A stretch of DNA of 32,803 nucleotides from an uncultured Planctomycetales bacterium. GTDB lineage: Bacteria; Omnitrophota; Gorgyraeia; Aquiviventales; Aquiviventaceae. Position 1 is the stretch's first letter; each line of letters starts with the position of its first letter. The position numbers and the translations under genes are program-made. Location of the stretch: contig CAYNXT010000002.1 of assembly GCA_964401235.1 (NCBI GenBank), positions 1 through 32,803 on the forward strand. The letters run 5' to 3'. Below are positions 6,614 to 24,195 of this stretch, in pieces. Below the pieces are notes generated by a model, which was not told the DNA's origin, searched no databases, and saw only the letters and a program-made list of their open reading frames with translations.

Positions 6614-7167
6614 TTTCCACGAATGAGTTTAAGAATGGCGAGGCCATCGTCATGGATGGCCAGCTCTGGCTGATCGTCGAATATCAGCATGTCAAGCCAG
6701 GCAAAGGAGGCGCATTTGTCCGCACCAAGTTGCGCCGGATGCGCGATGATTCGGTGATCGAGCGGACGTTCCGAGCCGGCGAAAAGTTCCAGGAAGCCTA
6801 CATCGAGAAGCGCTCGCTGCAGTATCTGTATCGCTCGGCTGATACGTTCCATCTCATGGATACCAAGTCGTTTGAAGAGGTGACGGTGCCGGCTGAGATT
6901 CTCGGGAAGGGAGCCGGCTTTCTCAAAGAAAATATGGAGCTGGAAGGCCAGTTTCATGACGGGCAGCTTATTGGCATCGCACCCCCCATGTTTGTGGACG
7001 TGCACATTCAGAGCACCGAACCCGGCGTTCGGGGTGACACCTCCAAGGGGGGGATGAAGCCGGCAACTTTGGAGACCGGTGCCACGATTCAAGTGCCCCT
7101 GTTTGTGGATACCGGGGACCTGATCCGGGTCGATACGAGAACCGGATCGTACGTCTCTCGCGTGTAA
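6610..7167 (+). CDS. efp: Elongation factor P
   Basis: 185 aa. STNEFKNG...[17 protein letters not shown]... Confidence 0.95.
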
Positions 7168-7181
7168 CGAGGGAGGGTGCA

Positions 7182-7658
7182 GTGGAGAAACGTCTGAAGT
7201 CATCCGACCGAGAAGCGTTTCGCCTGATCGAAGAGATGCTCCAGCTCATGGAAAGCCGCGGGCTGGTGGAGTTGGAAATGGAGCATCAAGGACTGCGCAT
7301 CCGCCTGAAAAAAGCCACGACGAGCCCCTCCCCTCAGATCGTTGAATATGTCACTGGCCTGCCGCAGCCTCAAGCCGCAGGGGCTGCTACCATGAAGCCT
7401 ATTGAAGAAGGCCGCCGCATCATCATCAAGTCGCCGATGGTCGGCACCTTTTACCGAACGCCGGCGCCTGATGCGCCACCATTTGTGGAAGTCGGCCAGG
7501 ACCTTGAAGTCGGGCAGGTGGTCTGCATTATCGAGGCCATGAAGTTGATGAATGAAATCAAGTCCGAAGTCGCCGGGCGCATTACCGAAATTCATCTTCA
7601 AAATGGCGATCCGGTGGAGTTCGGCCAGCCGCTGTTCACCGTTGAACCCCCCGCATAG
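7182..7658 (+). CDS. accB: Acetyl-CoA carboxylase biotin carboxyl carrier protein
   Basis: GTG start after a GGGAGGG Shine-Dalgarno sequence. Biotinylation motif CIIEAMKLMNEI. Pro/Ala linker. Confidence 0.93.
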   Translation: MEKRLKSSDREAFRLIEEMLQLMESRGLVELEMEHQGLRIRLKKATTSPSPQIVEYVTGLPQPQAAGAATMKPIEEGRRIIIKSPMVGTFYRTPAPDAPPFVEVGQDLEVGQVVCIIEAMKLMNEIKSEVAGRITEIHLQNGDPVEFGQPLFTVEPPA

Positions 7659-14412: not shown

Positions 14413-14895
14413 ATGGCGGCAATCGACCGGCTCTGGGCACCATGGCGCACCGCCTTTCTCTACCGACGCACTAAGAGTCGGCGATGCATTTTTTGCACGG
14501 CGAAGCGCACCAAGAGCCAAGACCGCATCCACCATGTCGTGGCTCGCGGCACCTCTACGTTTACGCTCTTGAATCGGTATCCGTACAATAACGGCCATGT
14601 CATGATCGCTCCCTATCGCCATGTCGGCACCTTAGAACGCTTGACGTCGCAGGAATGGGGCGAAATGTTGCGCCTGAGCCAACAGGTGATGAAGAAACTG
14701 ACGCGTACGCTCGGCCCTCAGGGCTGGAACGTGGGTCTGAATCTGGGACGAACCGCCGGAGCCGGCATCCCCGGCCATTTGCATCTGCACATCGTGCCGC
14801 GATGGAACGGAGACACCAACTTTTTTCCCACAGTCTCCGAAACCAAAGTGATTTCTCAGTCGTTGGATGCACTCTACACCTTCCTCACTCGGTGA
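14413..14895 (+). CDS. HIT-family nucleotide hydrolase/transferase
   Basis: Histidine triad GHLHLHIVPRW. NRYPYNNGHVMI. Confidence 0.85.
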   Translation: MAAIDRLWAPWRTAFLYRRTKSRRCIFCTAKRTKSQDRIHHVVARGTSTFTLLNRYPYNNGHVMIAPYRHVGTLERLTSQEWGEMLRLSQQVMKKLTRTLGPQGWNVGLNLGRTAGAGIPGHLHLHIVPRWNGDTNFFPTVSETKVISQSLDALYTFLTR

Positions 14896-16066
14896 TACGG
14901 CCTCGCTCCTGACGTCGCGGGAAGAGCTCGAGGCCCGCGAGGAACAGTGGCTGGCCCCCTACGCCCTGAAAAGCCGCGCCACGCGCGGACGCCAGCATCA
15001 AGAGTCCGAGGATCCCTACCGCACCGTCTACCGGCGCGACCGTGACCGCATCATCCACACGACCGCATTCCGCCGTTTGGAATATAAAACGCAAGTCTTC
15101 GTGAATCATGAAGGCGATCACTACCGCACGCGCCTGACCCACACACTGGAAGTGGCTCAAATCGCCGTCTCCATCGCCCGCATTCTTCGGCTCAATGAAG
15201 ATTTGGTGGAGGTCGTCGCGCTGGCTCATGACATCGGCCATCCGCCCTTCGGCCATGCCGGCGAAGATGCCTTGCGCGGGCTCATGGAGGGCCACGGAGG
15301 GTTCGAACACAACATCCAGGGCTTGCGCGTCGTCGATGTGCTCGAGACACGCTATCCAGGATTTCCAGGGTTGAATCTGACCTGGGAAGTGCGGGAGAGT
15401 ATTAACAAGCACCGCGCGCCGTACGATCTGCCGGACATGCCGGTCGCGCTGGATCCGAGCTCTGCGCCGCTGTTAGAGAGCCAAGTTGCCGACATCGCCG
15501 ATGAAATCGCGTATGACAATCATGACCTTGACGATGGGCTAGCCTCAGGTATCCTTAAAGAAGAGGAGCTTGAGCGGTTGGAGCTCTGGCGCCAAGCACG
15601 TGATTTGGTCACGCAAACCTGGGGCGAGTTAGAGCCCGAGATGCGACAGCATCAAATTATCCGCACGTTGATCCACCGACAGGTGTTGGACCTGGTCCAG
15701 GCCAGCAGCGAACGGCTCAAAGCGCAGCACATCGATTCGGTGACCGCCGTGCGCGCCTGTTCCCAGCGGCTCATCGGATTCAGCGATCACATGCGCGCAC
15801 TGCGCGTGCCCCTGAAGCAGTTTCTCTGGAACCAGTTCTATCATCACTACCGGGTCATTCGCATGGCGGATAAGGCCAAGCGGTTCATTGGAGAGCTCTT
15901 CTCGCTCTACATCAGCAAGCCGGAACAGCTGCCAAATACCACGCGCCTGCGCCTTTCAAAAAAGGAAGATCCCTATCGCGTGATCTGCGACTACATTGCC
16001 GGCATGACCGATCGGTACTGTTTAGAGGAATACAAGAAACTGTTCGATCCATTCGAGCGAGTCTAA
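14867..16066 (+). CDS. dgt: dGTP triphosphohydrolase-like HD-domain protein
   Basis: RDRDRIIHTTAFRRLEYKTQVF, HYRTRLTHTLEV, HDIGHPPFGHAGE, MTDRY. Overlaps the HIT gene by 29 nt if the ATG at 14867 is used. Confidence 0.9.
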   Translation: MHSTPSSLGDTASLLTSREELEAREEQWLAPYALKSRATRGRQHQESEDPYRTVYRRDRDRIIHTTAFRRLEYKTQVFVNHEGDHYRTRLTHTLEVAQIAVSIARILRLNEDLVEVVALAHDIGHPPFGHAGEDALRGLMEGHGGFEHNIQGLRVVDVLETRYPGFPGLNLTWEVRESINKHRAPYDLPDMPVALDPSSAPLLESQVADIADEIAYDNHDLDDGLASGILKEEELERLELWRQARDLVTQTWGELEPEMRQHQIIRTLIHRQVLDLVQASSERLKAQHIDSVTAVRACSQRLIGFSDHMRALRVPLKQFLWNQFYHHYRVIRMADKAKRFIGELFSLYISKPEQLPNTTRLRLSKKEDPYRVICDYIAGMTDRYCLEEYKKLFDPFERV

Positions 16067-16081
16067 CGAGGAGGAATCGGA

Positions 16082-16816
16082 ATGCGATACCTGATCATCG
16101 GGCTGGCACTGGCGGTGGTGGCGTGCGGATGTGGACGGAAAAGTTCCTTGCTCTTAGAGCGCCCGTCGCGCGGTCCGATGGCCGAAGTGCCTGAGGTCGC
16201 CCAGCAGGTGCTCTGGAACTTAGAGCCGACGACACAGACCGAGACCAAAGGCAATGTCGAGTTCCAGCTGATGCACGCCACCCCCGCCTATCTCCTCACG
16301 CTCTTTAACGACAAGGCCATCTTCGGTACATTCGCCGGCATGAACCCCTACTACCCGGAGCATCTGGTGTTTTACGTCAAGATCGCCAACAAGGGCGAAC
16401 AAAAAATCCGTATTCACCAGTCGGAATTTGTCTTGGTGGATGATCAAGGGGGGCAATACAGCGCGATCAGCACCGATTATGTGACCGCGTTCGCGGAATT
16501 CCGGCAGGGGGTCGCAGGAACAACGAGGGGCATGCTGGAGAGTGCGAGTCCAGGTTACTTCGGGTTTAGCATTCCGGTGGGGAAAATGTTCGCCCAGAAA
16601 CCGCAAAATCGCTTCGCGCTCTTGCAGCAGTCGGCGCTGCAAAACGGGTATCTCTATCCCGGGGTGGTGCACGACGGACTCGTGGCATTTTGGAATCCCT
16701 CAAGGAAGGCTAAAAAGATGCGGCTCATGACTGGCATTAAAACCGAGTTTGATGCCAACGACTGGCCGCAAAAGGTCCTTGAGTACGCCTTTGACTTGAC
16801 CGTCGTCAAACCCTAA
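16082..16816 (+). CDS. Putative lipoprotein of unknown function (DUF4352-like beta-sandwich?)
   Basis: GAGGAGG Shine-Dalgarno sequence. Signal peptide with lipobox MRYLIIGLALAVVAC. VKIANKGEQKIRIHQSEFVLVDDQGGQY resembles DUF4352. Confidence 0.6.
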   Translation: MRYLIIGLALAVVACGCGRKSSLLLERPSRGPMAEVPEVAQQVLWNLEPTTQTETKGNVEFQLMHATPAYLLTLFNDKAIFGTFAGMNPYYPEHLVFYVKIANKGEQKIRIHQSEFVLVDDQGGQYSAISTDYVTAFAEFRQGVAGTTRGMLESASPGYFGFSIPVGKMFAQKPQNRFALLQQSALQNGYLYPGVVHDGLVAFWNPSRKAKKMRLMTGIKTEFDANDWPQKVLEYAFDLTVVKP

Positions 16817-19710
16817 TGCTCGTAGGGACCGATGAGCCGCTGCTTGAGGATTTGACCGCGGCTCAGCGGCAAGCGGTCACCCATGAGGGTGGCCCGCTGT
16901 TGATTATTGCCGGGGCTGGCACCGGCAAGACCACGGTCATTACCCGCCGCATCGCCTGGCTCATCGCCACCAAACGGGCCCGTCCAGACGAAATCCTCGC
17001 GCTGACCTTTACCGAGAAGGCGGCCGCTGAGATGGAGGAGCGGGTCGACTTGCTCGTGCCGTACGGCTATCTGGACATTGCCATCCGGACCTTTCACGCC
17101 TTCGGCGACCAGCTCGTGCGAGAGCACGCAACGCAACTAGGACTTTCTCCGCACGTGCGCGTGCTCTCCAGCCCTGAGCAGGGTGTCTTCTTGCGCCGGC
17201 GCGCCTTCGAACTCCCGTTGCAATCGCTGCGGCCGCTCAACGATCCCACCCGATTTCTGGATGCGCTCTTGACCGTTTTTGCTCGCGCCAAAGATGAAGC
17301 CGTCAGTCCAGAAGACTACCTCGCCTACGCGCGCTCCATCCAACCCTCAGAGAGTCCGGAGGCACAACGCATCCTCGAAGTCGCCGAAGCCTACGCCGCC
17401 TATGAGCCGTTGCTCCGAAACGCCGACGCCATCGATTTCGGCGATCAGGTTCTGCTGGCCATCCGCTTACTGGAGCAGCATCCTGAGATCCAGGCCGCCC
17501 TGAAGTCGCGCTTCCGGTACATCCTGGTCGATGAGTTTCAAGACACCAACTACGCGCAGTATCGGTTGCTGCGGCTGCTGGCTGATCCAGGGGCCCCGAT
17601 CTCGGTCGTGGGGGATGATGACCAGAGCATCTATAAGTGGCGCGGGGCGGCGATCAGCAACATGCTGAAGTTTTTGGAGCACTATGCGGCCGTGCGCACG
17701 GTGGTGCTCACGGACAATTTTCGCTCGGGCCAACCGATTTTAGATTGCGCCTACCGATTGATTCGATTGAACAATCCGGATCGTTTGGAAACCAAGCAAG
17801 GCATCGAGAAGCGACTGGTGGCGAAGACGACGCACGCCGGCGATCCGCCGCACCTGAGAATTTTTGATACCGTCTCAAGCGAAGCGGATTGGGTGGCCGC
17901 CACGATTCGGCCAGAGATCGAATCCGGCGTCCGCCGGCCTGGCGAGTTTGCCATCCTCGTGCGCTCTAATCGGGAAGCGGATGGCTTTCTGCGAGCGCTC
18001 AATGTCGCTGGTGTGCCCTGGCGCTTTAGCGGTACGAGCGGCCTGTTTGCGCGTGAAGAAACCAAGATTCTGCTCTCCTGTCTTAAGACCTTGGCTGATC
18101 CGGATGATAGCCTCAGCTGGTTTCACGTGGCCAGCTCGCCCCTCTATGGCTGTGCGATGCAGGATCTGAGCCTGGTACTCGCCCATGGCCGCAAGACAAA
18201 CCACAGCTTTCGCCGCGTGCTGGAGCAGCTGAACCAAGAGCCCACGCTGGCCGAGGCCATCAGCGAAGCGGGCAAGCGGCAGCTGACACAGCTGCAAGAG
18301 GATGTGGCCCGGTTGCTTGAGCAGACGCGCACCCGTTCCAGCGGCCAGGTGCTCTACCAATGGCTCTCGGATCGAGGCTGGCTTGCGCGCTTAAGCCAAG
18401 AGGAGCGGTTGGAGGATCTGTTGCGACTCCAGACGATCGCAGCATTTTTTTCACAACTGCGCCGGATCGAAGAGCTCGTCGCAGGCCGGCTGCCTGAGCT
18501 CATGCAACACCTGGAGCTGTTTGAGGCGATGGGCCACGAAGCGCCGAATGAAGATGATGCCTGGGCGGATTGCGTCCATGTGCTGACGATTCACAAAGCC
18601 AAAGGGCTGGAATTTCCCGTCGTGTTCATGGTCGGCTTGGTGCAGGGGAGGTTTCCGACGCTACGGCGGCGTGACACCATCGAGCTGCCCGATGCATTGA
18701 TTCAGGATATCTTGCCTTCGGGGGACTACCATTTGCAGGAAGAACGGCGACTGTTTTACGTCGGCATGACCAGGGCCAAGCATGCTCTCTATCTTTCCTG
18801 CGCGTATGATTATGGGGGCAAGACCGTTCGAAAGGTGAGCCAGTTTGTCTTGGAAGCGTTGGACCTTGCCAGTCCTAGTCCTCCGGCGAGGATTGCGAAC
18901 GCCAAGGAGTTGATTGCGCGTTCCAGGGCACAGGAGCCGCTGCCGCTGAGCGCTTCCGACCCTGCGAGAAGAATCCTCAGGCTTGATCCGCATGGAGTGG
19001 ACGATTATCTGACCTGTCCGCTCAAGTACCGCTACAGCCATGTGCTGAAGGTGCCTGTCATGCGCCACCACCTGGTCGCGTATGGCTCGGCGCTCCACAA
19101 GGCGGTCGAAGCCTTCTTCAGGCAGCGCCTGGCTGGGCAGGAGATGGCCGAGACGGAGTTGCTCGCCACCTTTGAGCAAGCCTGGAGCGCTGAAGGGTTT
19201 CTGACGCAAGAACATGAGCAGCTGCGGTTTGCCCAAGGCCGAGAAACGCTGCGGCGTTTCTACCAACGCCAACAGCAAGCACCCGAACGGCCGCTGCTCA
19301 TTGAAGAAAAGTTCAAATTTCCTCTCGATGGTCTGCTGGTGGTCGGCCGGTGGGATCGAGTGGACCGCCAGGGAGAGAACATCGTGATCATCGACTATAA
19401 ATCTTCCGAGGTGCATGAGCAGGCCGAAGCCGATCGCCGCACTCGAGAATCGTTGCAGCTCCTGATCTATGCGCTGGCCTGGCGCACGCTCCATGGCGTG
19501 CCGCCCGCTGGGATGGAGCTGCGGTTTTTAGAGACCGATCTCATCGGCCGTGCCGAAGTCACGGAGGAAGGGATGGCTCGTGCCGCCACCTTCTTGCGTG
19601 AAGCAGCCGCAGGGATCAGAGCGGGGAAGTTTGGTGCTAAGCCGCAAGAGCATGCCTGTCGCTGGTGCGCGTTCCAAGCGATTTGCCCCTTCGCGTTTCA
19701 CATCCGTTAA
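16816..19710 (+). CDS. UvrD/PcrA-family SF1 helicase fused to a C-terminal Cas4/AddB-type PD-(D/E)XK nuclease with a 4-Cys cluster
   Basis: AGAGTGKT (motif I), VDEFQDTN (II), TIHKAKGLEFPVVF, VGMTRAKHALYLS (VI). C-terminus: YLTCPLKY...DRVDR...IIDYKS...CRWCAFQAICP (C...CxxCx5C). Confidence 0.88.
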   Translation: MLVGTDEPLLEDLTAAQRQAVTHEGGPLLIIAGAGTGKTTVITRRIAWLIATKRARPDEILALTFTEKAAAEMEERVDLLVPYGYLDIAIRTFHAFGDQLVREHATQLGLSPHVRVLSSPEQGVFLRRRAFELPLQSLRPLNDPTRFLDALLTVFARAKDEAVSPEDYLAYARSIQPSESPEAQRILEVAEAYAAYEPLLRNADAIDFGDQVLLAIRLLEQHPEIQAALKSRFRYILVDEFQDTNYAQYRLLRLLADPGAPISVVGDDDQSIYKWRGAAISNMLKFLEHYAAVRTVVLTDNFRSGQPILDCAYRLIRLNNPDRLETKQGIEKRLVAKTTHAGDPPHLRIFDTVSSEADWVAATIRPEIESGVRRPGEFAILVRSNREADGFLRALNVAGVPWRFSGTSGLFAREETKILLSCLKTLADPDDSLSWFHVASSPLYGCAMQDLSLVLAHGRKTNHSFRRVLEQLNQEPTLAEAISEAGKRQLTQLQEDVARLLEQTRTRSSGQVLYQWLSDRGWLARLSQEERLEDLLRLQTIAAFFSQLRRIEELVAGRLPELMQHLELFEAMGHEAPNEDDAWADCVHVLTIHKAKGLEFPVVFMVGLVQGRFPTLRRRDTIELPDALIQDILPSGDYHLQEERRLFYVGMTRAKHALYLSCAYDYGGKTVRKVSQFVLEALDLASPSPPARIANAKELIARSRAQEPLPLSASDPARRILRLDPHGVDDYLTCPLKYRYSHVLKVPVMRHHLVAYGSALHKAVEAFFRQRLAGQEMAETELLATFEQAWSAEGFLTQEHEQLRFAQGRETLRRFYQRQQQAPERPLLIEEKFKFPLDGLLVVGRWDRVDRQGENIVIIDYKSSEVHEQAEADRRTRESLQLLIYALAWRTLHGVPPAGMELRFLETDLIGRAEVTEEGMARAATFLREAAAGIRAGKFGAKPQEHACRWCAFQAICPFAFHIR

Positions 19711-19831
19711 GTCCTTTTAAGTCTCCCTCCAAAATAGTTCCTCCAGCCCTTGACGCTTATCCAGAAATAATGTTTATTTTAAATAGACTTATAAATAGTA
19801 AATTAAGCTACTGGTCCCTCAGGAGGTAGCA

Positions 19832-20101
19832 ATGTTCCAACGACCGGCACCACAGACGAAACTGGTTCCAACCGCGCCCGAAGTCTTCGAAGCGCGATTT
19901 AAGCGGTTCTTGAAGGAGTTTGAGGGCTATGAGCGCAAGGCGATCTTTGAGCGTACGCTGGATGCGTTCCTCGATCTGTATTCAGCCTGGAAGCGGACGC
20001 ATGCGCCGGCGCTGAAAATTCGGGTGGTCATGCTGGTGTTTGAACTCAACCGACTGGACCCCCAATTTTCCTGCGATCTCTCCTTCCGAGACTCTGCATG
20101 A
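19832..20101 (+). CDS. Hypothetical protein (89 aa)
   Basis: AGGAGG at 19821-19826, 5 nt before the ATG. ATGA overlap with the next ORF. No motif recognised. Confidence 0.5.
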   Translation: MFQRPAPQTKLVPTAPEVFEARFKRFLKEFEGYERKAIFERTLDAFLDLYSAWKRTHAPALKIRVVMLVFELNRLDPQFSCDLSFRDSA

Positions 20102-20466
20102 GACAAATCCTGGTCAGAAACCTGACGTCGAACGATTGGCTCAAGCGCGACTGCATCGTCAGCGAGCTCATGGAGCAGGGCGATTGTGCCACCCGGGTCA
20201 TGCGCCGCTGCACCTATCATGTGGAATCTCGGATCACGGTGCCTTCAACAGCCGATTCCATTCACTGGGCCAAAACGCTCGATCCAGTTCCTCCGCGGCA
20301 GGTGTATGTGACGAAAGATTTGGATCCTGAAACCGGAGGAGAGCAGGTCAGCTACAAAGTTCTTGGTCACTTCTACGTGGTCCTCGATCGTGAGATCTTC
20401 TGCGTGGGCTACCGCCACATCCTCTCGATGATGGTCCAAGCCTCTGACATCTTCTCCGAAGAGTAA
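20098..20466 (+). CDS. Hypothetical protein (122 aa)
   Basis: Translationally coupled (ATGA) to the upstream ORF. No motif recognised. Confidence 0.5.
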   Translation: MRQILVRNLTSNDWLKRDCIVSELMEQGDCATRVMRRCTYHVESRITVPSTADSIHWAKTLDPVPPRQVYVTKDLDPETGGEQVSYKVLGHFYVVLDREIFCVGYRHILSMMVQASDIFSEE

Positions 20467-20525
20467 ATCCCCTCGCCATTGCTGCGGGTCCTGGCTCAAG
20501 CCTAATCAAGGTGCCTCCGACCAAA

Positions 20526-20685
20526 CCTGCTCGCTTAGATGCGGGCTCTCGTCGCCCTCGGTGTGCGGACCGTCCGCCAAACTCCTCGCCCCGAGCACGC
20601 ACTACTTCGGGATCGGGGCTCGTCAGACATGGCGGCCGAGAGCGTCCGCACTCCTCGGGCTGAGCCCGCATAATCCGCTCGCAGG
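20526..20685. repeat. Long imperfect palindrome, unit 1
   Basis: Outer arms are cctgctcgcttagatgcgggctc (from 20526) and gagcccgcataatccgctcgcagg (to 20685). Central hairpin is gccccga...tcggggc. Confidence 0.6.
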
Positions 20686-20713
20686 TTGGTCAGAGGCAGG
20701 AGTCGCCAATAAT

Positions 20714-20909
20714 GTGCTCTCGCCCACTCGTGAGCGACCTATGCGGACTCAGCCCGCAGGGTGCGGCCAGGTCGTTAATCCACGGCCACCGCTGTCTGAG
20801 CCCCGCCGCTTCGCGCAGCGAAGCACTCCGGCGGGGCGAGTTCGGTGGCCGGGCTGCGCCCAAGGGCGCCCGGAGGCCGCATCGGAGCGAACGAGTTGGG
20901 CGAGAGCAC
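20714..20909. repeat. Long imperfect palindrome, unit 2
   Basis: Outer arms are gtgctctcgcccactcgt...atgcgg (from 20714) and ccgcat...acgagttgggcgagagcac (to 20909). Inner matches are cggccaccg and ccccgccg/cggcgggg. Central hairpin is gcttcgc-gca-gcgaagc (20808-20824). Confidence 0.75.
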
Positions 20910-20940
20910 AAGAAACCTCACGCAATTGTGTCAGCTCATG

Positions 20941-20969
20941 TTGACGCCTCTACGAGGCCATGCTAGAGT
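20941..20969 (+). promoter_or_regulatory. Putative sigma-70 promoter for gpsA (TTGACG-17 nt-TAGAGT)
   Basis: TTGACG 20941-20946, a 17-nt spacer, and TAGAGT 20964-20969. The ATG lies at 20977, only 7 nt past the -10 box. Confidence 0.45.
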
Positions 20970-20976
20970 GACGGCG

Positions 20977-21978
20977 ATGAATCCACACAAGACGACCGTT
21001 GCAGTCCTCGGAGACGGTGGGTGGGGAACGACGCTAGCCATTCACCTCCACAAGCGCGGCCACCAGGTCCGCTGGTGGGGAGCGTTTCCCGAGTATGTCG
21101 CCCTCCTCAAGCGCCGGCATGAGAACGTCAAATTCCTACCGGGTATTCGTCTTCCAAAAGAGTTACCCATCACTGCACATCTGGATGAAGCGCTCACCAA
21201 TGCCCAACTCATCGTCTTAGCGGTTCCATCCCAATATTTACGCAAGGTGGCGGTGAAGCTGCGACGCGCAAGGCTTGACCGTCAAATTATTTTGAGCGTT
21301 GCCAAGGGGCTCGAGCAAGGGAGTTTCAAGCGAATGTCGCAAGTCGTCACCGAGGAGCTCGGGCGTGTACCGCTTGCGGTGCTCTCAGGGCCGAATATCG
21401 CCAAGGAAATTGCCGGCGGTTATCCCGCCAGTTCGGTGGTAGCTTCACCGGACGCGCGGCTTGCCAAGTTTGTGCAACAGACCTTCATGAATGAGCAGTT
21501 TCGTGTCTATACCTCTCCTGATGTGATCGGAGTGGAACTAGGGGGTGCGCTTAAGAATCCACTGGCCATTGCCGCAGGCTTAAGCGATGGTTTGGGCTTC
21601 GGCGCCAATGCTAAAGCCGCGCTCGTCACACGCGGCGTCGTCGAAATGGCGCGATTGGGCGTGGGCATGGGGGCGAAGGCGGAAACCTTTTGGGGTCTGA
21701 GCGGTCTTGGCGATCTCGTGACGACCTGTCTTGCTGGTCGGAATCACTGGCTCGGTGAGCAGCTTGGTCGAGGCCGATCGTTAAAAGCGGTGCTGGCCTC
21801 AACACCCATGGTGATCGAGGGCGTCGAAACTTCCAAAGCCGCCGTCGCACTCGCCCGTCGCCACCGTGTGGAACTACCGATCATCGAACAGGTCGCAGCC
21901 GTCCTCTTCCGACATCGTCCGCCCCGCAAGGCGCTCCACGCCCTCATGCGCCGCTCCGGCAAATCCGAATCCGCCTGA
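20977..21978 (+). CDS. gpsA: NAD(P)H-dependent glycerol-3-phosphate dehydrogenase
   Basis: VAVLGDGGWGTTLA, GPNIAKE, GALKN, GLGDLVTTC. The ATG at 20977 is preferred; the ORF-track start at 20845 runs through the palindrome. Confidence 0.92.
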   Translation: MNPHKTTVAVLGDGGWGTTLAIHLHKRGHQVRWWGAFPEYVALLKRRHENVKFLPGIRLPKELPITAHLDEALTNAQLIVLAVPSQYLRKVAVKLRRARLDRQIILSVAKGLEQGSFKRMSQVVTEELGRVPLAVLSGPNIAKEIAGGYPASSVVASPDARLAKFVQQTFMNEQFRVYTSPDVIGVELGGALKNPLAIAAGLSDGLGFGANAKAALVTRGVVEMARLGVGMGAKAETFWGLSGLGDLVTTCLAGRNHWLGEQLGRGRSLKAVLASTPMVIEGVETSKAAVALARRHRVELPIIEQVAAVLFRHRPPRKALHALMRRSGKSESA

Positions 21979-22046
21979 GCCTGAGCCTAGTCGTTGACAG
22001 TATTCGACGAGCCTGCTACGCTGTAACTCCTTCATGCAATAGGGAC

Positions 22047-22076
22047 TTGACAAGATATATATCTTTGATATATACT
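22047..22076 (+). promoter_or_regulatory. Putative vapBC promoter with an embedded 14-bp perfect palindrome (candidate operator)
   Basis: TTGACA 22047-22052, an 18-nt spacer, and TATACT 22071-22076. The palindrome AAGATATATATCTT lies at 22052-22065. Confidence 0.5.
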
Positions 22077-22083
22077 AGTGGTT

Positions 22084-22314
22084 ATGAAAGAGGCGAAACT
22101 ATTCCAGAACGGTCGCAGCCAGGCGGTCCGATTGCCCAAAGAGTATCGCTTGACGGGCAAATCCGTCTATATTCATAAGCTGGGGAATCTTGTCGTGCTC
22201 ATTCCAAAAAAGAAATCCTGGAGCTCCCTGGTAGACGCGTGCGCCAAATTCACCGAAGATTTCATGACGAGCCGGGATCAAGGAGTGCATGAGCGCGAGC
22301 GCCCGTTTGCATGA
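22084..22314 (+). CDS. vapB: AbrB/SpoVT-family antitoxin VapB
   Basis: MKEAKLFQNGRSQAVRLPKEYRL is the swapped-hairpin antitoxin motif. ATGA overlap with the PIN gene. Confidence 0.85.
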   Translation: MKEAKLFQNGRSQAVRLPKEYRLTGKSVYIHKLGNLVVLIPKKKSWSSLVDACAKFTEDFMTSRDQGVHERERPFA

Positions 22315-22709
22315 AGTACCTCTTGGATACAAACATTTGTATCTACCTCATTAAGAAGAAGCCTCAAAAGACGTTCGCCAAGTTTCAAGATTTGAATGTC
22401 GGAGAAGTCGGCATTTCGGCTATTACCTACGCAGAGTTAGAGTATGGGGTGGCGCACAGCAGTGACCCCCAACAAAACAGGATGGCGTTGAGCGAGTTTT
22501 TGGCTCCGTTAGAGCTTCTTGATTTCCAAGCCCCCATCGCTCCCCTCTATGGAGTTCTTCGCACCTCGCTGGTGCGCGCCGGAAAAATGATCGGTCCGCT
22601 TGATCTGTTGATCGCCGCGCATGCATTATTTCTTGGTGCGGTTCTTGTCACGAACAACGTCAAAGAGTTCTCAAGAGTCGCTGATCTCAGAATTGAGAAT
22701 TGGGTATGA
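22311..22709 (+). CDS. vapC: PIN-domain ribonuclease toxin VapC
   Basis: MKYLLDTNICIY..., AITYAELEYG, DLLIAAHAL, LVTNNVKEF. Confidence 0.92.
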   Translation: MKYLLDTNICIYLIKKKPQKTFAKFQDLNVGEVGISAITYAELEYGVAHSSDPQQNRMALSEFLAPLELLDFQAPIAPLYGVLRTSLVRAGKMIGPLDLLIAAHALFLGAVLVTNNVKEFSRVADLRIENWV

Positions 22710-22740
22710 AGGAGCGAGGGGTTTCCCGCGATTGCCATTT

Positions 22741-22817
22741 CGGGGCGTGGCGTAGCTTGGTAGCGCGCGTGAATGGGGTTCACGAGGTCCTGGGTTCAAA
22801 TCCCAGCGCCCCGACCA
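22741..22817 (+). tRNA. tRNA-Pro (anticodon GGG)
   Basis: Hand-folded: acceptor CGGGGCG/CGCCCCG (C1:G72), A73, encoded CCA, anticodon stem CGTGA/TCACG with loop ATGGGGT, T arm CTGGG-TTCAAAT-CCCAG. Confidence 0.9.
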
Positions 22818-22827
22818 TCGAAATACA

Positions 22828-22855
22828 GTGAAAAGTGTAAAGTTGAAAGTGGAAA
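22828..22855. repeat. Heptanucleotide tandem array (GTGAAAA GTGTAAA GTTGAAA GTGGAAA)
   Basis: Four contiguous 7-nt units starting 11 nt after the tRNA-Pro 3' end. Confidence 0.8.
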
Positions 22856-22884
22856 AGGAACCAGGAATTCAATTAGAGTTCTGA

Positions 22885-24195
22885 ATGAGTCGGAAAATTA
22901 ACGTTGGTCTTATTGGATTGGGGACGGTGGGCACCGGTGTCGCTCGGGCCCTTCTGGAGAAGGCGCATCTTCTTGAGGAGCGCATCGGCGCACGGGTCGT
23001 GCTGCGCCGGGTGTGCGATCGTGACTTGCGGCGCCGGCGGGGGTTTCGCCTCCCACCAGGCTTAGGGACTTCTGACCCTGCGGTCATCCTGCGCGATCCG
23101 GACATTCACATCGTCGTCGAGCTGATTGGCGGGCTGGAGCCGGCCAGAACGCTTGTGCTCGAAGCGTTGCGGCGCGGCAAGCATGTGGTGACTGCGAACA
23201 AGGCGCTGCTGGCCGAGGCAGGGCATGAGCTCTTTCGAGCGGCCGCCAAGGCGAACGCCGATCTCTATTTCGAAGCGTCGGTCGGAGGCGGCATTCCAAT
23301 TATTAAGGCGCTGCGCGAAGGGTTAGTGGCGAACGACGTGGATGCGATCCTCGGCATCGTCAATGGCACATCCAACTACATCCTCACCCAGATGCGCGAG
23401 AAAGGCCTCAGCTTTCATGAGGCGCTCTTAGAAGCCAAGCACCATGGCTATGCCGAGCGCAATCCTTCACTGGATATCGAGGGGCATGACGCGGCGCACA
23501 AACTTGCCATCTTAACGCTGCTAGGATTTGGACAGCAGGTCCGCCTGTCCGATATTCACGTGGAAGGTATTAGCAAAATTTCCCAAGCCGACATTCAATA
23601 TGCCGAGGAGCTCGGGTATTGCATCAAGCCGCTGGCGATTGCCAAGCAGGTCGATCATGAACTCGACATACGGGTGCACCCGACACTCCTGGCTAAGACG
23701 CACCTTCTGGCCAATGTGAATGGCGTCTACAACGCCATCTATGTGCATGGCGACATGGTAGGTTCCACCTTGTTCTACGGCAGAGGGGCAGGCCAAAATC
23801 CAGCGGCCAGCTCGGTGGTGTCCGACATCGCGGATGTGGCGCGAAACCTGGTCACCGGGACCAACCATCGCATCCCACTCACCGCCTATCACGCTCGGCG
23901 CGTGCATCGCTTGCGCCGGATGGGCAATATCGAGACGCGTTACTACATGCGCTTTATGGCGGTGGATAAGCCCGGGGTGCTTGCCCGTATCGCGAATATC
24001 TTGGGGCACCACCACATTTCCATTGCGAGCGTCCATCAGAAGGAGCGCAAGGCCGCGCGCTTTGTGCCTGTCGTCATGATGACGCACGAAGCCAAAGAGT
24101 CTCACGTCCGCCGCGCCCTTGAGACGATCGACCGTCTTGGGTTCGTCAGGCAGCCGACTGTCGCGCTGCGAACGGAAGCTCCACGTCCGCAGTAG
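22885..24195 (+). CDS. hom: Homoserine dehydrogenase
   Basis: INVGLIGLGTVGTGV, VVTANKAL, GGGIPII, NGTSNYILT, C-terminal ACT-like domain. Confidence 0.93.
   Translation: MSRKINVGLIGLGTVGTGVARALLEKAHLLEERIGARVVLRRVCDRDLRRRRGFRLPPGLGTSDPAVILRDPDIHIVVELIGGLEPARTLVLEALRRGKHVVTANKALLAEAGHELFRAAAKANADLYFEASVGGGIPIIKALREGLVANDVDAILGIVNGTSNYILTQMREKGLSFHEALLEAKHHGYAERNPSLDIEGHDAAHKLAILTLLGFGQQVRLSDIHVEGISKISQADIQYAEELGYCIKPLAIAKQVDHELDIRVHPTLLAKTHLLANVNGVYNAIYVHGDMVGSTLFYGRGAGQNPAASSVVSDIADVARNLVTGTNHRIPLTAYHARRVHRLRRMGNIETRYYMRFMAVDKPGVLARIANILGHHHISIASVHQKERKAARFVPVVMMTHEAKESHVRRALETIDRLGFVRQPTVALRTEAPRPQ

Follow-up and report, generated by a model that had tools for sequence, protein, structure and literature searches.

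We analysed a 32,803-nt stretch of contig CAYNXT010000002.1 from an uncultured Omnitrophota bacterium (the 32.8-kb 'window'), and specifically two long palindromes, unit 1 and unit 2, that lie between two genes of the + strand: p122, a conserved gene encoding 122 amino acids whose stop codon precedes the palindromes (20098-20466), and gpsA, which encodes NAD(P)H-dependent glycerol-3-phosphate dehydrogenase (20977-21978; Pfam PF01210 and PF07479). The open reading frame (ORF) of gpsA opens at GTG 20968, with ATG 20977 being the likelier start, and the p122-gpsA gap measures 501 nt to the former and 510 nt to the latter. An earlier reading of the sequence (the original prediction) had put the gap at 470 nt, while correctly describing it as non-coding and GC-rich (65.7% GC vs 58.4% for the whole window). 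Upstream, p122 is paired with the 89-amino-acid gene p89 (19832-20101, +), the first of a conserved pair; like gpsA, both genes lie outside the elements. The best GpsA relatives are found in groundwater Candidatus Omnitrophota metagenome-assembled genomes (64-73% identity), and the metagenome runs that contain the window stretch are of groundwater type.

Two long hairpins are arranged head-to-head between p122 and gpsA

As originally predicted, both palindromes are long, imperfect and centred on a GC hairpin, and they extend slightly further than first thought. Unit 1 is a ~193-nt imperfect hairpin (20507-20699, sense on the - strand; pairing, fold and alignment) with the apical GC hairpin GCCCCGA...TCGGGGC at 20588-20619 (inverted repeat I10; folds). 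Unit 2 is a ~200-nt rod-like hairpin (20712-20911, sense on the + strand; fold, inverted repeat I3). It pairs from 20712/13 to 20910/11 and is closed by a perfect 14-bp stem (20713-20726 with 20897-20910; I3). The unit 2 apex reads CCCCGCCG-CTTCGC-GCA-GCGAAG-CACTC-CGGCGGGG, i.e. the predicted hairpin is there, accompanied by a 5-nt CACTC bulge that had been left out. When the 501-nt gap is folded as RNA, the energy is -270.1 kcal/mol (z -8.4) for the + strand and -268 kcal/mol (z -6.7) for the - strand, values that none of 100 shuffles equalled; the z-score is -9.5 when it is folded as DNA, and the folds of single units have z-scores of -4.8 to -8.6.

We refer to the + strand of unit 2 and the - strand of unit 1 as 'sense'. 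In both units the fold of the sense strand is the more stable one, by 11 kcal/mol: -134.8 (z -8.6) vs -123.7 kcal/mol for the antisense strand in unit 2, and -114.6 (z -7.7) vs -103.8 kcal/mol in unit 1. In local alignments evaluated against dinucleotide shuffles, unit 1 matches the reverse complement of unit 2 with a score of 130.5 (z 11.8) and unit 2 in the same orientation with a score of 75 (z 3.0). As judged from these alignments, the units are two diverged head-to-head copies of one oriented element and not the tandem pair that had been proposed. The whole 400 nt forms a higher-order palindrome (inverted repeats I1 and I2), and the two sense 5' ends meet at an AT-rich junction (20700-20711), around which the two copies stand head-to-head. 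The junction sequence is GCCAATAATG (20705-20714), with AATAAT/ATTATT at 20708-20713 entering the first bases of unit 2.

The same mirror symmetry explains a motif that was originally described as occurring four times in alternating orientation. Four sites do exist (ATGCGG at 20539 and 20741, CCGCAT at 20666 and 20877); however, they are not a simple alternation of one motif. Their order is long-short | short-long, the long form having ~5 extra bases: long form ATGCGGGCTCTCGTCGCCCTCGGTGTGCGGAC (20539-20570, +; the 5' arm of unit 1 on the + strand; I4, I9), short form ATGCGGGCTCAGCCCGAGGAGTGCGGAC on the - strand (20641-20671), short form ATGCGGACTCAGCCCGCAGGGTGCGGCC (20741-20768, +) and long form ATGCGGCCTCCGGGCGCCCTTGGGCGCAGCCCGG on the - strand (20849-20882; I2, I11). 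The full 16-mer is exact only in the two short forms, at 20656-20671(-) and 20741-20756(+), and the arm with the extra bases is the 5' arm in unit 1 and the 3' arm in unit 2. Each hairpin has two arms, and its arms account for two of the four motif copies. The third copy, at which metagenome depth peaks (see below), ranks with the best-conserved family blocks (columns 36-51 of alignment A2 are invariant).

Further inward, unit 2 has a one-sided bulge of 14 nt (20767-20781, +; fold) that varies among copies: it is absent from unit 1, where the alignment has a gap of 9-10 columns, and substitutions and 1-nt indels are concentrated here in the metagenome copies. Beyond it lies the conserved core (20792-20846, +), in which the internal loop TGTCTGA/GAGTT surrounds the apical stem-loop (GCCCCGCCG-CTTCGC-GCA-GCGAAG-...-CGGCGGGGC). 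Exact-motif, sequence and covariance-model searches detected no further copies elsewhere in the window.

The hairpin is kept by compensatory substitutions

A close relative has a single homologous copy at the same site. L083, a 694-nt groundwater contig with a p122 homologue that is 93% identical, carries one sense unit-2-like copy ~30 nt after the p122 stop codon. The L083 element is ~85% identical to unit 2 (score 196, z 22.6), and the contig ends inside it. L083 lacks ~18 nt of spacer that the window and another contig, L088, share just before the element, and its outer stem (CCTCCGACCGAT...) is closer to the unit 1 end than to the unit 2 end. Both L083 and the flank consensus of the metagenome copies have AT-rich boxes, comparable to that of the junction, ahead of the hairpin 5' base.

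In a three-sequence alignment the hairpin comprises 61 pairs, with 94.6% of cells paired (85.0 +/- 1.9 in shuffles; 33-44% in slid controls). Covariation among homologues, which the original prediction had proposed to look for, is evident: 18 of the 61 pairs have changed on both sides, as compared to 8.1 +/- 2.0 in shuffles, a value that none of 500 shuffles reached. The outer stem is the most variable part and yet is still paired, and compensatory changes are also seen in the apical stem of unit 2. The inner stem AUGCGG.CUC/GAG.CCGCAU, the loop UGUCUGA/GAGUU and the GC apex are conserved; the core blocks are common to unit 2, L083, unit 1 (reverse complement) and a more distant copy in the contig L010 (reverse complement; see below). 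The hairpin is thus kept by compensatory substitutions, its outer-stem sequence drifting and its inner core being conserved.

The elements are non-coding. The symmetry yields mirror ORFs on the two strands; the predicted MCSRP start is found at 20712+, while the frame from 20911- reads LCSRP and starts at TTG. Since element copies differ by 1-nt indels and six-frame translations gave no match among 5.8 billion protein clusters, we consider these ORFs to be artefacts of a GC-rich palindrome.

In good agreement with the original statement that nothing here resembles RNase P, tmRNA, SRP or riboswitches, an Rfam scan of the region at gathering threshold was negative. Relaxing the filters brought up only hairpin models of unrelated families (the best being MIR1151, 36.8 bits vs a gathering score of 90), and no Rfam family recurs in L010 or L083, so that no known family emerges for the window, L010 or L083 at either setting. 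Further candidates were rejected. The rod shape calls to mind 6S RNA; however, there is no central two-sided bubble, the sole large bulge is variable, not even a weak 6S match is found and the family is multi-copy. Integron attC sites, CRISPR, retrons and IS110/IS200 guide RNAs were set aside as their partner genes and defining repeat architecture are lacking. The window has two ordinary tRNAs, both located elsewhere; a tRNA/tmRNA scan of it gave no tmRNA, and no tandem repeats were found in it.

A relative carries an inverted copy on the other side of gpsA

Searching for copies with the motif and the units, as had been suggested, was uninformative at the level of sequence similarity: blastn and nhmmer of the units against 80 gpsA loci returned nothing. 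We then used a covariance model, R1, built from unit 2, L083 and unit 1 (reverse complement). R1 scores unit 1 at 198 bits on the - strand, unit 1 being a training sequence and the score hence not independent. In ~280 kb of loci, R1 gave one further significant match, L010:7138-7243(-) (27.2 bits, E 1e-4 to 3e-5). The GpsA of L010 is 68% identical to that of the window, and the match belongs to a ~250-nt hairpin (L010:7031-7281) located 3' of gpsA and antisense to it, i.e. on the opposite side of gpsA and in the opposite orientation; the contig stops 30 nt beyond it. Collinear identical blocks (AACTCCTCGCCCCG, GGGGCTCGTCAGAC and CGGGCTGAGCC) link this copy to the others, and direct alignment bears out the relationship: unit 1 (+) against L010 (+) gives z 7.3 (0.1 in the opposite orientation) and unit 2 (-) against L010 (+) gives z 5.5 (0.8 in the opposite orientation).

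The L010 copy contains a nested GC-rich inner hairpin of 62-104 nt (L010:7054-7157), in place of which other metagenome copies have a different 32 nt (joint 7053->7158). This nested segment could be a variable module, or else a smaller palindromic element in its own right. Around the L010 hairpin there is an 11-nt direct repeat, TGGCGGCGGGT, at 7010-7020 and 7290-7300, 8-9 nt outside each hairpin end; it could be a target duplication, or could have arisen by chance in DNA of 76% GC.

Broader pattern searches were not productive. An exact scan of metagenome contigs with a degenerate 21-mer gave two matches, both by chance and in unrelated contexts, and two pattern scans of viral contigs gave 0 and 3 matches, the latter 3 being unconfirmed by the covariance model.

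The L010-type subfamily is multi-copy in groundwater metagenomes

To estimate abundance, Logan contigs at >=80% likeness were mapped onto L010:6600-7314 in four runs (X1, X5, X3 and X2); in this measure the depth of gpsA coding blocks sums all orthologues at >=80%. In X1 the same-genome flanks have a depth of 26.7, the best-conserved gpsA blocks reach a maximum of 141 and the core of the L010 element (7128-7199) peaks at ~1250-1300. The corresponding values are 6.8, 26 and 262 in X5, 7.9, 38 and 315 in X3, and 7.1, 32 and 109 in X2. The L010-type core thus stands at 15-49x the flank depth and at 3.4-10x the summed depth of gpsA orthologues, and the depth is back to background within 10 nt of the hairpin 3' end. 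A depth 3.4-10x above the sum for a housekeeping gene is out of reach for a locus present once, and the L010-type subfamily is therefore multi-copy. The L010 element is covered by 61 contigs in X1, of which 29 are >=95% alike, and there is more than one outer flank.

The core of unit 2 (20726-20887) is also in excess in X1, with a depth of 105-163 vs 10-14 for its flanks (~10x) and at least two classes of left flank. Contigs that match unit 2 exactly are found at flank-level depth, and therefore there is no identical second copy of unit 2. Taken together, members of the family are found at other junctions, at another locus and in both orientations, and a sister subfamily is multi-copy in the same communities. 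The original prediction had reasoned that many dispersed identical copies with target duplications would signify an ordinary MITE (miniature inverted-repeat transposable element); dispersed copies are largely what we see at the metagenome level, but identical copies and target duplications are not.

The pair is an insertion into a variable spacer

Next to this we compared the p122-gpsA spacer of the window with that of ten related Omnitrophota loci and of one contig known from gene coordinates only (P0002). The spacer is short (44-177 nt) in eight of the 11 compared loci, namely L001, L002, L003, L005, L008, L011, L015 and P0002 (p122 80% identical; spacer of 80 nt), as opposed to 501 nt in the window. 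In the seven loci other than P0002 it usually consists of one GC hairpin with a T-run, followed by the gpsA promoter GTTGAC...TGCTAGAGT. Four loci (L006, L010, L013 and L085) have 1-3.5 kb of extra genes between p122 and gpsA. The element is absent from the p122-gpsA spacer in L001, L002, L003, L005, L006, L008, L009, L010, L011, L013 and L015, there is no copy after p122 in L084-L087, and none is present on the contigs of p122 homologues P0003, P0007, P0020 and P0024.

The window keeps a native 3' spacer after p122 (20467-20494, +) that ends at the left insertion boundary. It is common to L088 (P0122), which belongs to the same 90% identity p122 cluster: the 28 nt after the stop codon are shared up to ...TGGCTC, after which L088 diverges; the first part of the spacer is also present in L083. 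On the right, the promoter-like site of gpsA (TTGACG-17-TAGAGT with a TG extension; 20941-20969, +) lies downstream of and outside the elements, and relatives show the same GTTGAC...TGCTA(G/C)AGT 5' of gpsA. Because this site is outside the elements and the spacers of relatives are short or variable, we interpret the ~400-nt pair as an insertion into a variable spacer, one that occupies the place of the terminator in relatives. The available empty sites (the spacers of relatives and L088) are too distant to define the junctions.

Other sequences are found at this site in relatives. The L009 spacer has an unrelated AT-rich and very long hairpin of ~130 nt (L009:5830-5960), which suggests that other families of palindromic elements use the p122-gpsA site. 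Directly 3' of the p122 homologue, L084 has a c-di-GMP-I riboswitch (L084:995-1147(+); RF01051, 46.7 bits), and in L085 four small genes separate a similar sequence (L085:3379-3640) from gpsA. No c-di-GMP-I riboswitch is present in the window.

Genes around the elements

The order p244, UvrD/PD-(D/E)XK helicase-nuclease, p89, p122, gpsA, hom is kept in 10 of the 15 closest loci (L001-L015), and p89-p122 is therefore a conserved syntenic pair rather than the orphan operon it was originally taken for. In this Omnitrophota clade the pair, of unassigned family, always follows the UvrD/PD-(D/E)XK helicase-nuclease; in the window, AT-rich promoter-like DNA is found 5' of p89 (19710-19830). Syntenic homologues of p89 are 58-71% identical in 10 related loci, and p122 has 383 homologues at 68-93% identity with 40 invariant residues. 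Neither protein matches a Pfam, NCBIfam, PHROG or PADLOC family, and no defence or phage family match was obtained. The AlphaFold2 (AF2) model of p122 is confident and all-beta (pLDDT 85.7), and a PDB structure search with it gave no match (best E 0.015, TM 0.37). A link between the upstream operon and the elements was considered and rejected; p122 has no transposase-like features.

The -10 box of gpsA (TAGAGT, 20964-20969) ends 7 nt before ATG 20977 and is conserved in relatives. This spacing suggests that the gpsA mRNA may be leaderless or near-leaderless. Downstream, between gpsA and tRNA-Pro/hom, there is a VapBC-type toxin-antitoxin pair (a MazE/AbrB-like antitoxin and a PIN toxin; 22078-22709) that sits in a low-GC block (50.5% GC over 22001-23000) and is absent at that site in L001; L010 has a similar VapBC-type pair on the other side of gpsA (L010:5400-5998). 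The gpsA neighbourhood is a hot spot for small insertions. Upstream, an HD-domain protein (14867-16066) matches the PADLOC dGTPase model (338 bits) and the UvrD/PD-(D/E)XK protein (16816-19710) matches GajB-type helicase models; both genes are syntenic in relatives and are probably housekeeping genes and not a defence island.

Discussion

In this study we have characterised two long hairpins between p122 and gpsA that we interpret, with a probability of about 0.6, as two diverged head-to-head copies of a non-autonomous, oriented, GC-rich palindromic repeat of ~200-250 bp, whose family inhabits a groundwater Omnitrophota clade and resembles ERIC, REPIN and MITE elements. Of the explanations listed in the original prediction, a MITE-like element or one akin to REP (repetitive extragenic palindromic) sequences and BIMEs (bacterial interspersed mosaic elements) is the best fit: compared with syntenic relatives the pair is inserted DNA, copies occur at other junctions, loci and orientations, and one subfamily is over-represented in metagenomes.

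BIMEs are E. coli clusters of REP units, also termed palindromic units (PU), in alternating orientation. The locus is similar in having adjacent units of opposite orientation between two genes, but each of our units is ~5x longer than REP and there are only two. ERIC-type elements are known to vary by nested or internal modules, as the inner hairpin of the L010 copy and the unit 2 bulge do here. The ERIC or IRU elements of Enterobacteriaceae are ~127-bp imperfect palindromes that are listed as MITEs (PMC3184786), and, as that source relays from De Gregorio et al. 2005, they are predicted to fold into a long RNA stem-loop able to affect the stability of the upstream mRNA. The elements described here likewise are long imperfect intergenic palindromes at gene 3' ends, probably co-transcribed and in either orientation, with a centre better conserved than the ends, variants with internal insertions and no transposase of their own. 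However, they measure ~200-250 bp and not 127 bp, have 67-70% GC and belong to a different phylum, which makes ERIC a functional analogue only, with no expected similarity in sequence; moreover, they show neither the TA flanks nor the target duplications that have been reported for ERIC-type elements.

REPINs are REP doublets that form hairpins and are mobilised by RAYT transposases, and their spacer is less conserved (PMC3116915). Similarities include an inverted pair of a conserved short motif, ATGCGGRCTCAGCCCG (itself a small palindrome), around a spacer, which yields a hairpin in single-stranded DNA (ssDNA) or mRNA, selection on this hairpin, intergenic clustered copies and the plausibility of a single trans-acting enzyme as mobiliser. 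The motifs are spaced by ~125-140 bp here, in contrast to 71-110 bp, and, unlike in the REPIN spacer, conservation of the centre equals or exceeds that of the motif pair. Finally, the classical bacterial MITEs include Correia/NEMIS, Chunjie (178-235 bp) and Nezha (PMC3184786, PMC11602168). Like these, the elements are small (193 and 200 bp, within 50-800 bp), non-coding, intergenic, multi-copy at the metagenome level and able to form a long stem-loop at the RNA level; unit 2 has perfect 14-bp inverted termini, although the whole element is a palindrome. Unlike these, they do not conserve their termini between copies, and neither a target-site duplication nor a parent insertion sequence (IS) was identified. 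As the elements do not display in full the strict hallmarks of a MITE (conserved terminal inverted repeats (TIRs), target duplication and parent IS) or of a REPIN (less conserved spacer and RAYT gene), we say that the elements work like ERIC, REPIN and MITE sequences and assign them to neither MITEs nor REPINs.

How might such an element spread and act? We suggest that the folded single strand, be it ssDNA during replication or transposition, or RNA, would be the form that is copied or selected, and that copies would spread in trans through an enzyme encoded elsewhere in the genome. Since the termini are not the conserved part, the most natural candidate would be a hairpin-recognising transposase of the HUH/Y1 type (RAYT or IS200-like). 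At the p122-gpsA site the elements would replace the plain intrinsic terminator of relatives. Given that they occupy its place, p89-p122 transcripts would either terminate in or read through two hairpins of great stability (-104 and -135 kcal/mol), and the elements are probably co-transcribed as 3' hairpins. These could act as a barrier to 3' exonucleases, as a pause site or as an RNase target, and could insulate p89-p122 from gpsA, which would keep its own promoter just downstream.

Several observations weigh against the mobile-repeat interpretation. There is no transposase or RAYT gene within the 32.8-kb window and no clear direct repeat or target-site duplication around unit 1 or unit 2. 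Conservation is lowest at the termini, in contrast to classical TIR-MITEs: outer-stem sequences differ among unit 1, unit 2, L083, L010 and the metagenome variants. The evidence for copy number is metagenome depth summed over strains and species, and not a per-genome count. Unit 1 has no metagenome copies at >=80% likeness, its depth being flat at 14.2, and the unit 2 excess (~10x its flanks) is no larger than the depth over conserved coding blocks, be they in p122 (234-330) or in gpsA (126); a single copy in each related genome could account for it. Apart from L010, no other copy was found in ~170 kb of related loci. All fetched loci are p122 or gpsA neighbourhoods, and it is from depth and flank diversity that we infer wider dispersal.

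Compensatory changes, a variable outer stem and conserved inner loops and blocks are also the pattern expected of functional RNAs, and each unit might instead be the gene for a ~200-nt rod-like small RNA (sRNA), with a promoter of its own at the AT-rich junction (20700-20713) and transcription running to the right through unit 2 and to the left through unit 1, belonging to a multi-copy Omnitrophota sRNA. The better folding of the sense strand in both units is consistent with this, as are the 6 G-U pairs vs 1 A-C mismatch of the sense-strand consensus, a count that is small and is biased because the structure was predicted on the sense strand. Both sense 5' ends face the same AT-rich junction, and the window, L083 and the metagenome flank consensus all have a -10-like box (AATAAT, ATTATT, TATACT, GATATT, GATACT or TTATCT) that precedes the 5' base of the hairpin by ~3-11 nt (mostly 6 nt). 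However, no sigma-70-like promoter passes the scan at the junction, the only one found being that of gpsA, neither unit is followed by a U-tract terminator, and the L010 copy lacks the AT-rich box and has a sense strand that folds no better. The very high multiplicity of the related subfamily, with copies in mixed orientation, and the tolerance of 1-nt indels, a variable bulge and nested insertions argue in the same direction, as do the absence of an Rfam match, not even a weak one to 6S or SRP, and the simple rod without junctions, which is typical of palindromic repeats. While the covarying hairpin and the conserved core are compatible with the structured RNA pair that was originally considered, copy number, mixed orientation, nested insertions and the missing terminator make it less likely, and we deem sRNA genes unlikely. 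Somewhat more doubtful still is the proposition that the conserved core (the ATGCGG.CTCAGCCCG stem, the TGTCTGA/GAGTT loop and the GC apex) and the covarying closing stem mark a functional single-stranded nucleic acid, be it a new multi-copy structured Omnitrophota RNA transcribed divergently from the AT-rich junction, or the hairpin substrate or guide of an unrecognised hairpin-dependent mobile system.

Location speaks for a different possibility, that of a vertically inherited, locus-specific cis-acting RNA, either a stabiliser, terminator or insulator in the 3' untranslated region of p89-p122 or an upstream regulator of gpsA, that was doubled by inverted duplication. The elements lie exactly between the p122 stop codon and the gpsA promoter, at the terminator site of relatives; in the closest relative, L083, the copy occupies the same site and its left junction is similar (TTATCTAGCGTA|CCTCCGACC vs TAATCAAGGTG|CCTCCGACC); the higher-order palindrome is as expected from inverted duplication; and the only other copy found, that of L010, also adjoins gpsA. 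Yet the same spacer is free of the element in 10 syntenic relatives and L010, measures 80 nt in P0002, has no copy in L084-L087 and differs in sequence in L088 despite the shared 90% p122 cluster, while the L010 copy is inverted and on the other side of gpsA. The L010-type core at 3.4-10x the depth of all gpsA orthologues is impossible for a single locus, and flanks differ in metagenomes. Since the loci were all retrieved by way of gpsA or p122, the seeming link with gpsA arises from ascertainment. A cis-acting RNA of this kind is very improbable, and the narrower idea of a cis-element belonging to the upstream operon is not supported, the p89-p122 pair being conserved and element-free in most relatives. 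As to small proteins encoded by the mirror ORFs (20561-20944 +, 20712-20966 + and 20690-20911 -), four of six frames are open across unit 2; however, open frames on both strands are expected for a palindrome of 70% GC, no gene is called on the L083 element, and the indels between copies together with the lack of any resemblance among protein clusters make coding next to inconceivable.

Full-text literature searches revealed no earlier description of a long palindromic intergenic repeat family in Candidatus Omnitrophota, and if the elements are indeed mobile repeats, this would be the first one described. Such a family would account for assembly breaks, as L083, L010 and the Logan contigs all end in or beside the element, and it would offer a possible strain-typing marker and a tool for studying the spread of repeats in uncultured, partly ultra-small bacteria. 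Should the sRNA or the ssDNA-substrate explanation hold instead, the elements would represent a new RNA class or the cis-element of a mobile system. For annotators, the mirror ORFs serve as a warning, since those seen here are spurious. Locally, the p122-gpsA spacer illustrates one way in which very stable hairpins can replace a terminator region and leave the promoter of the downstream gene undisturbed.

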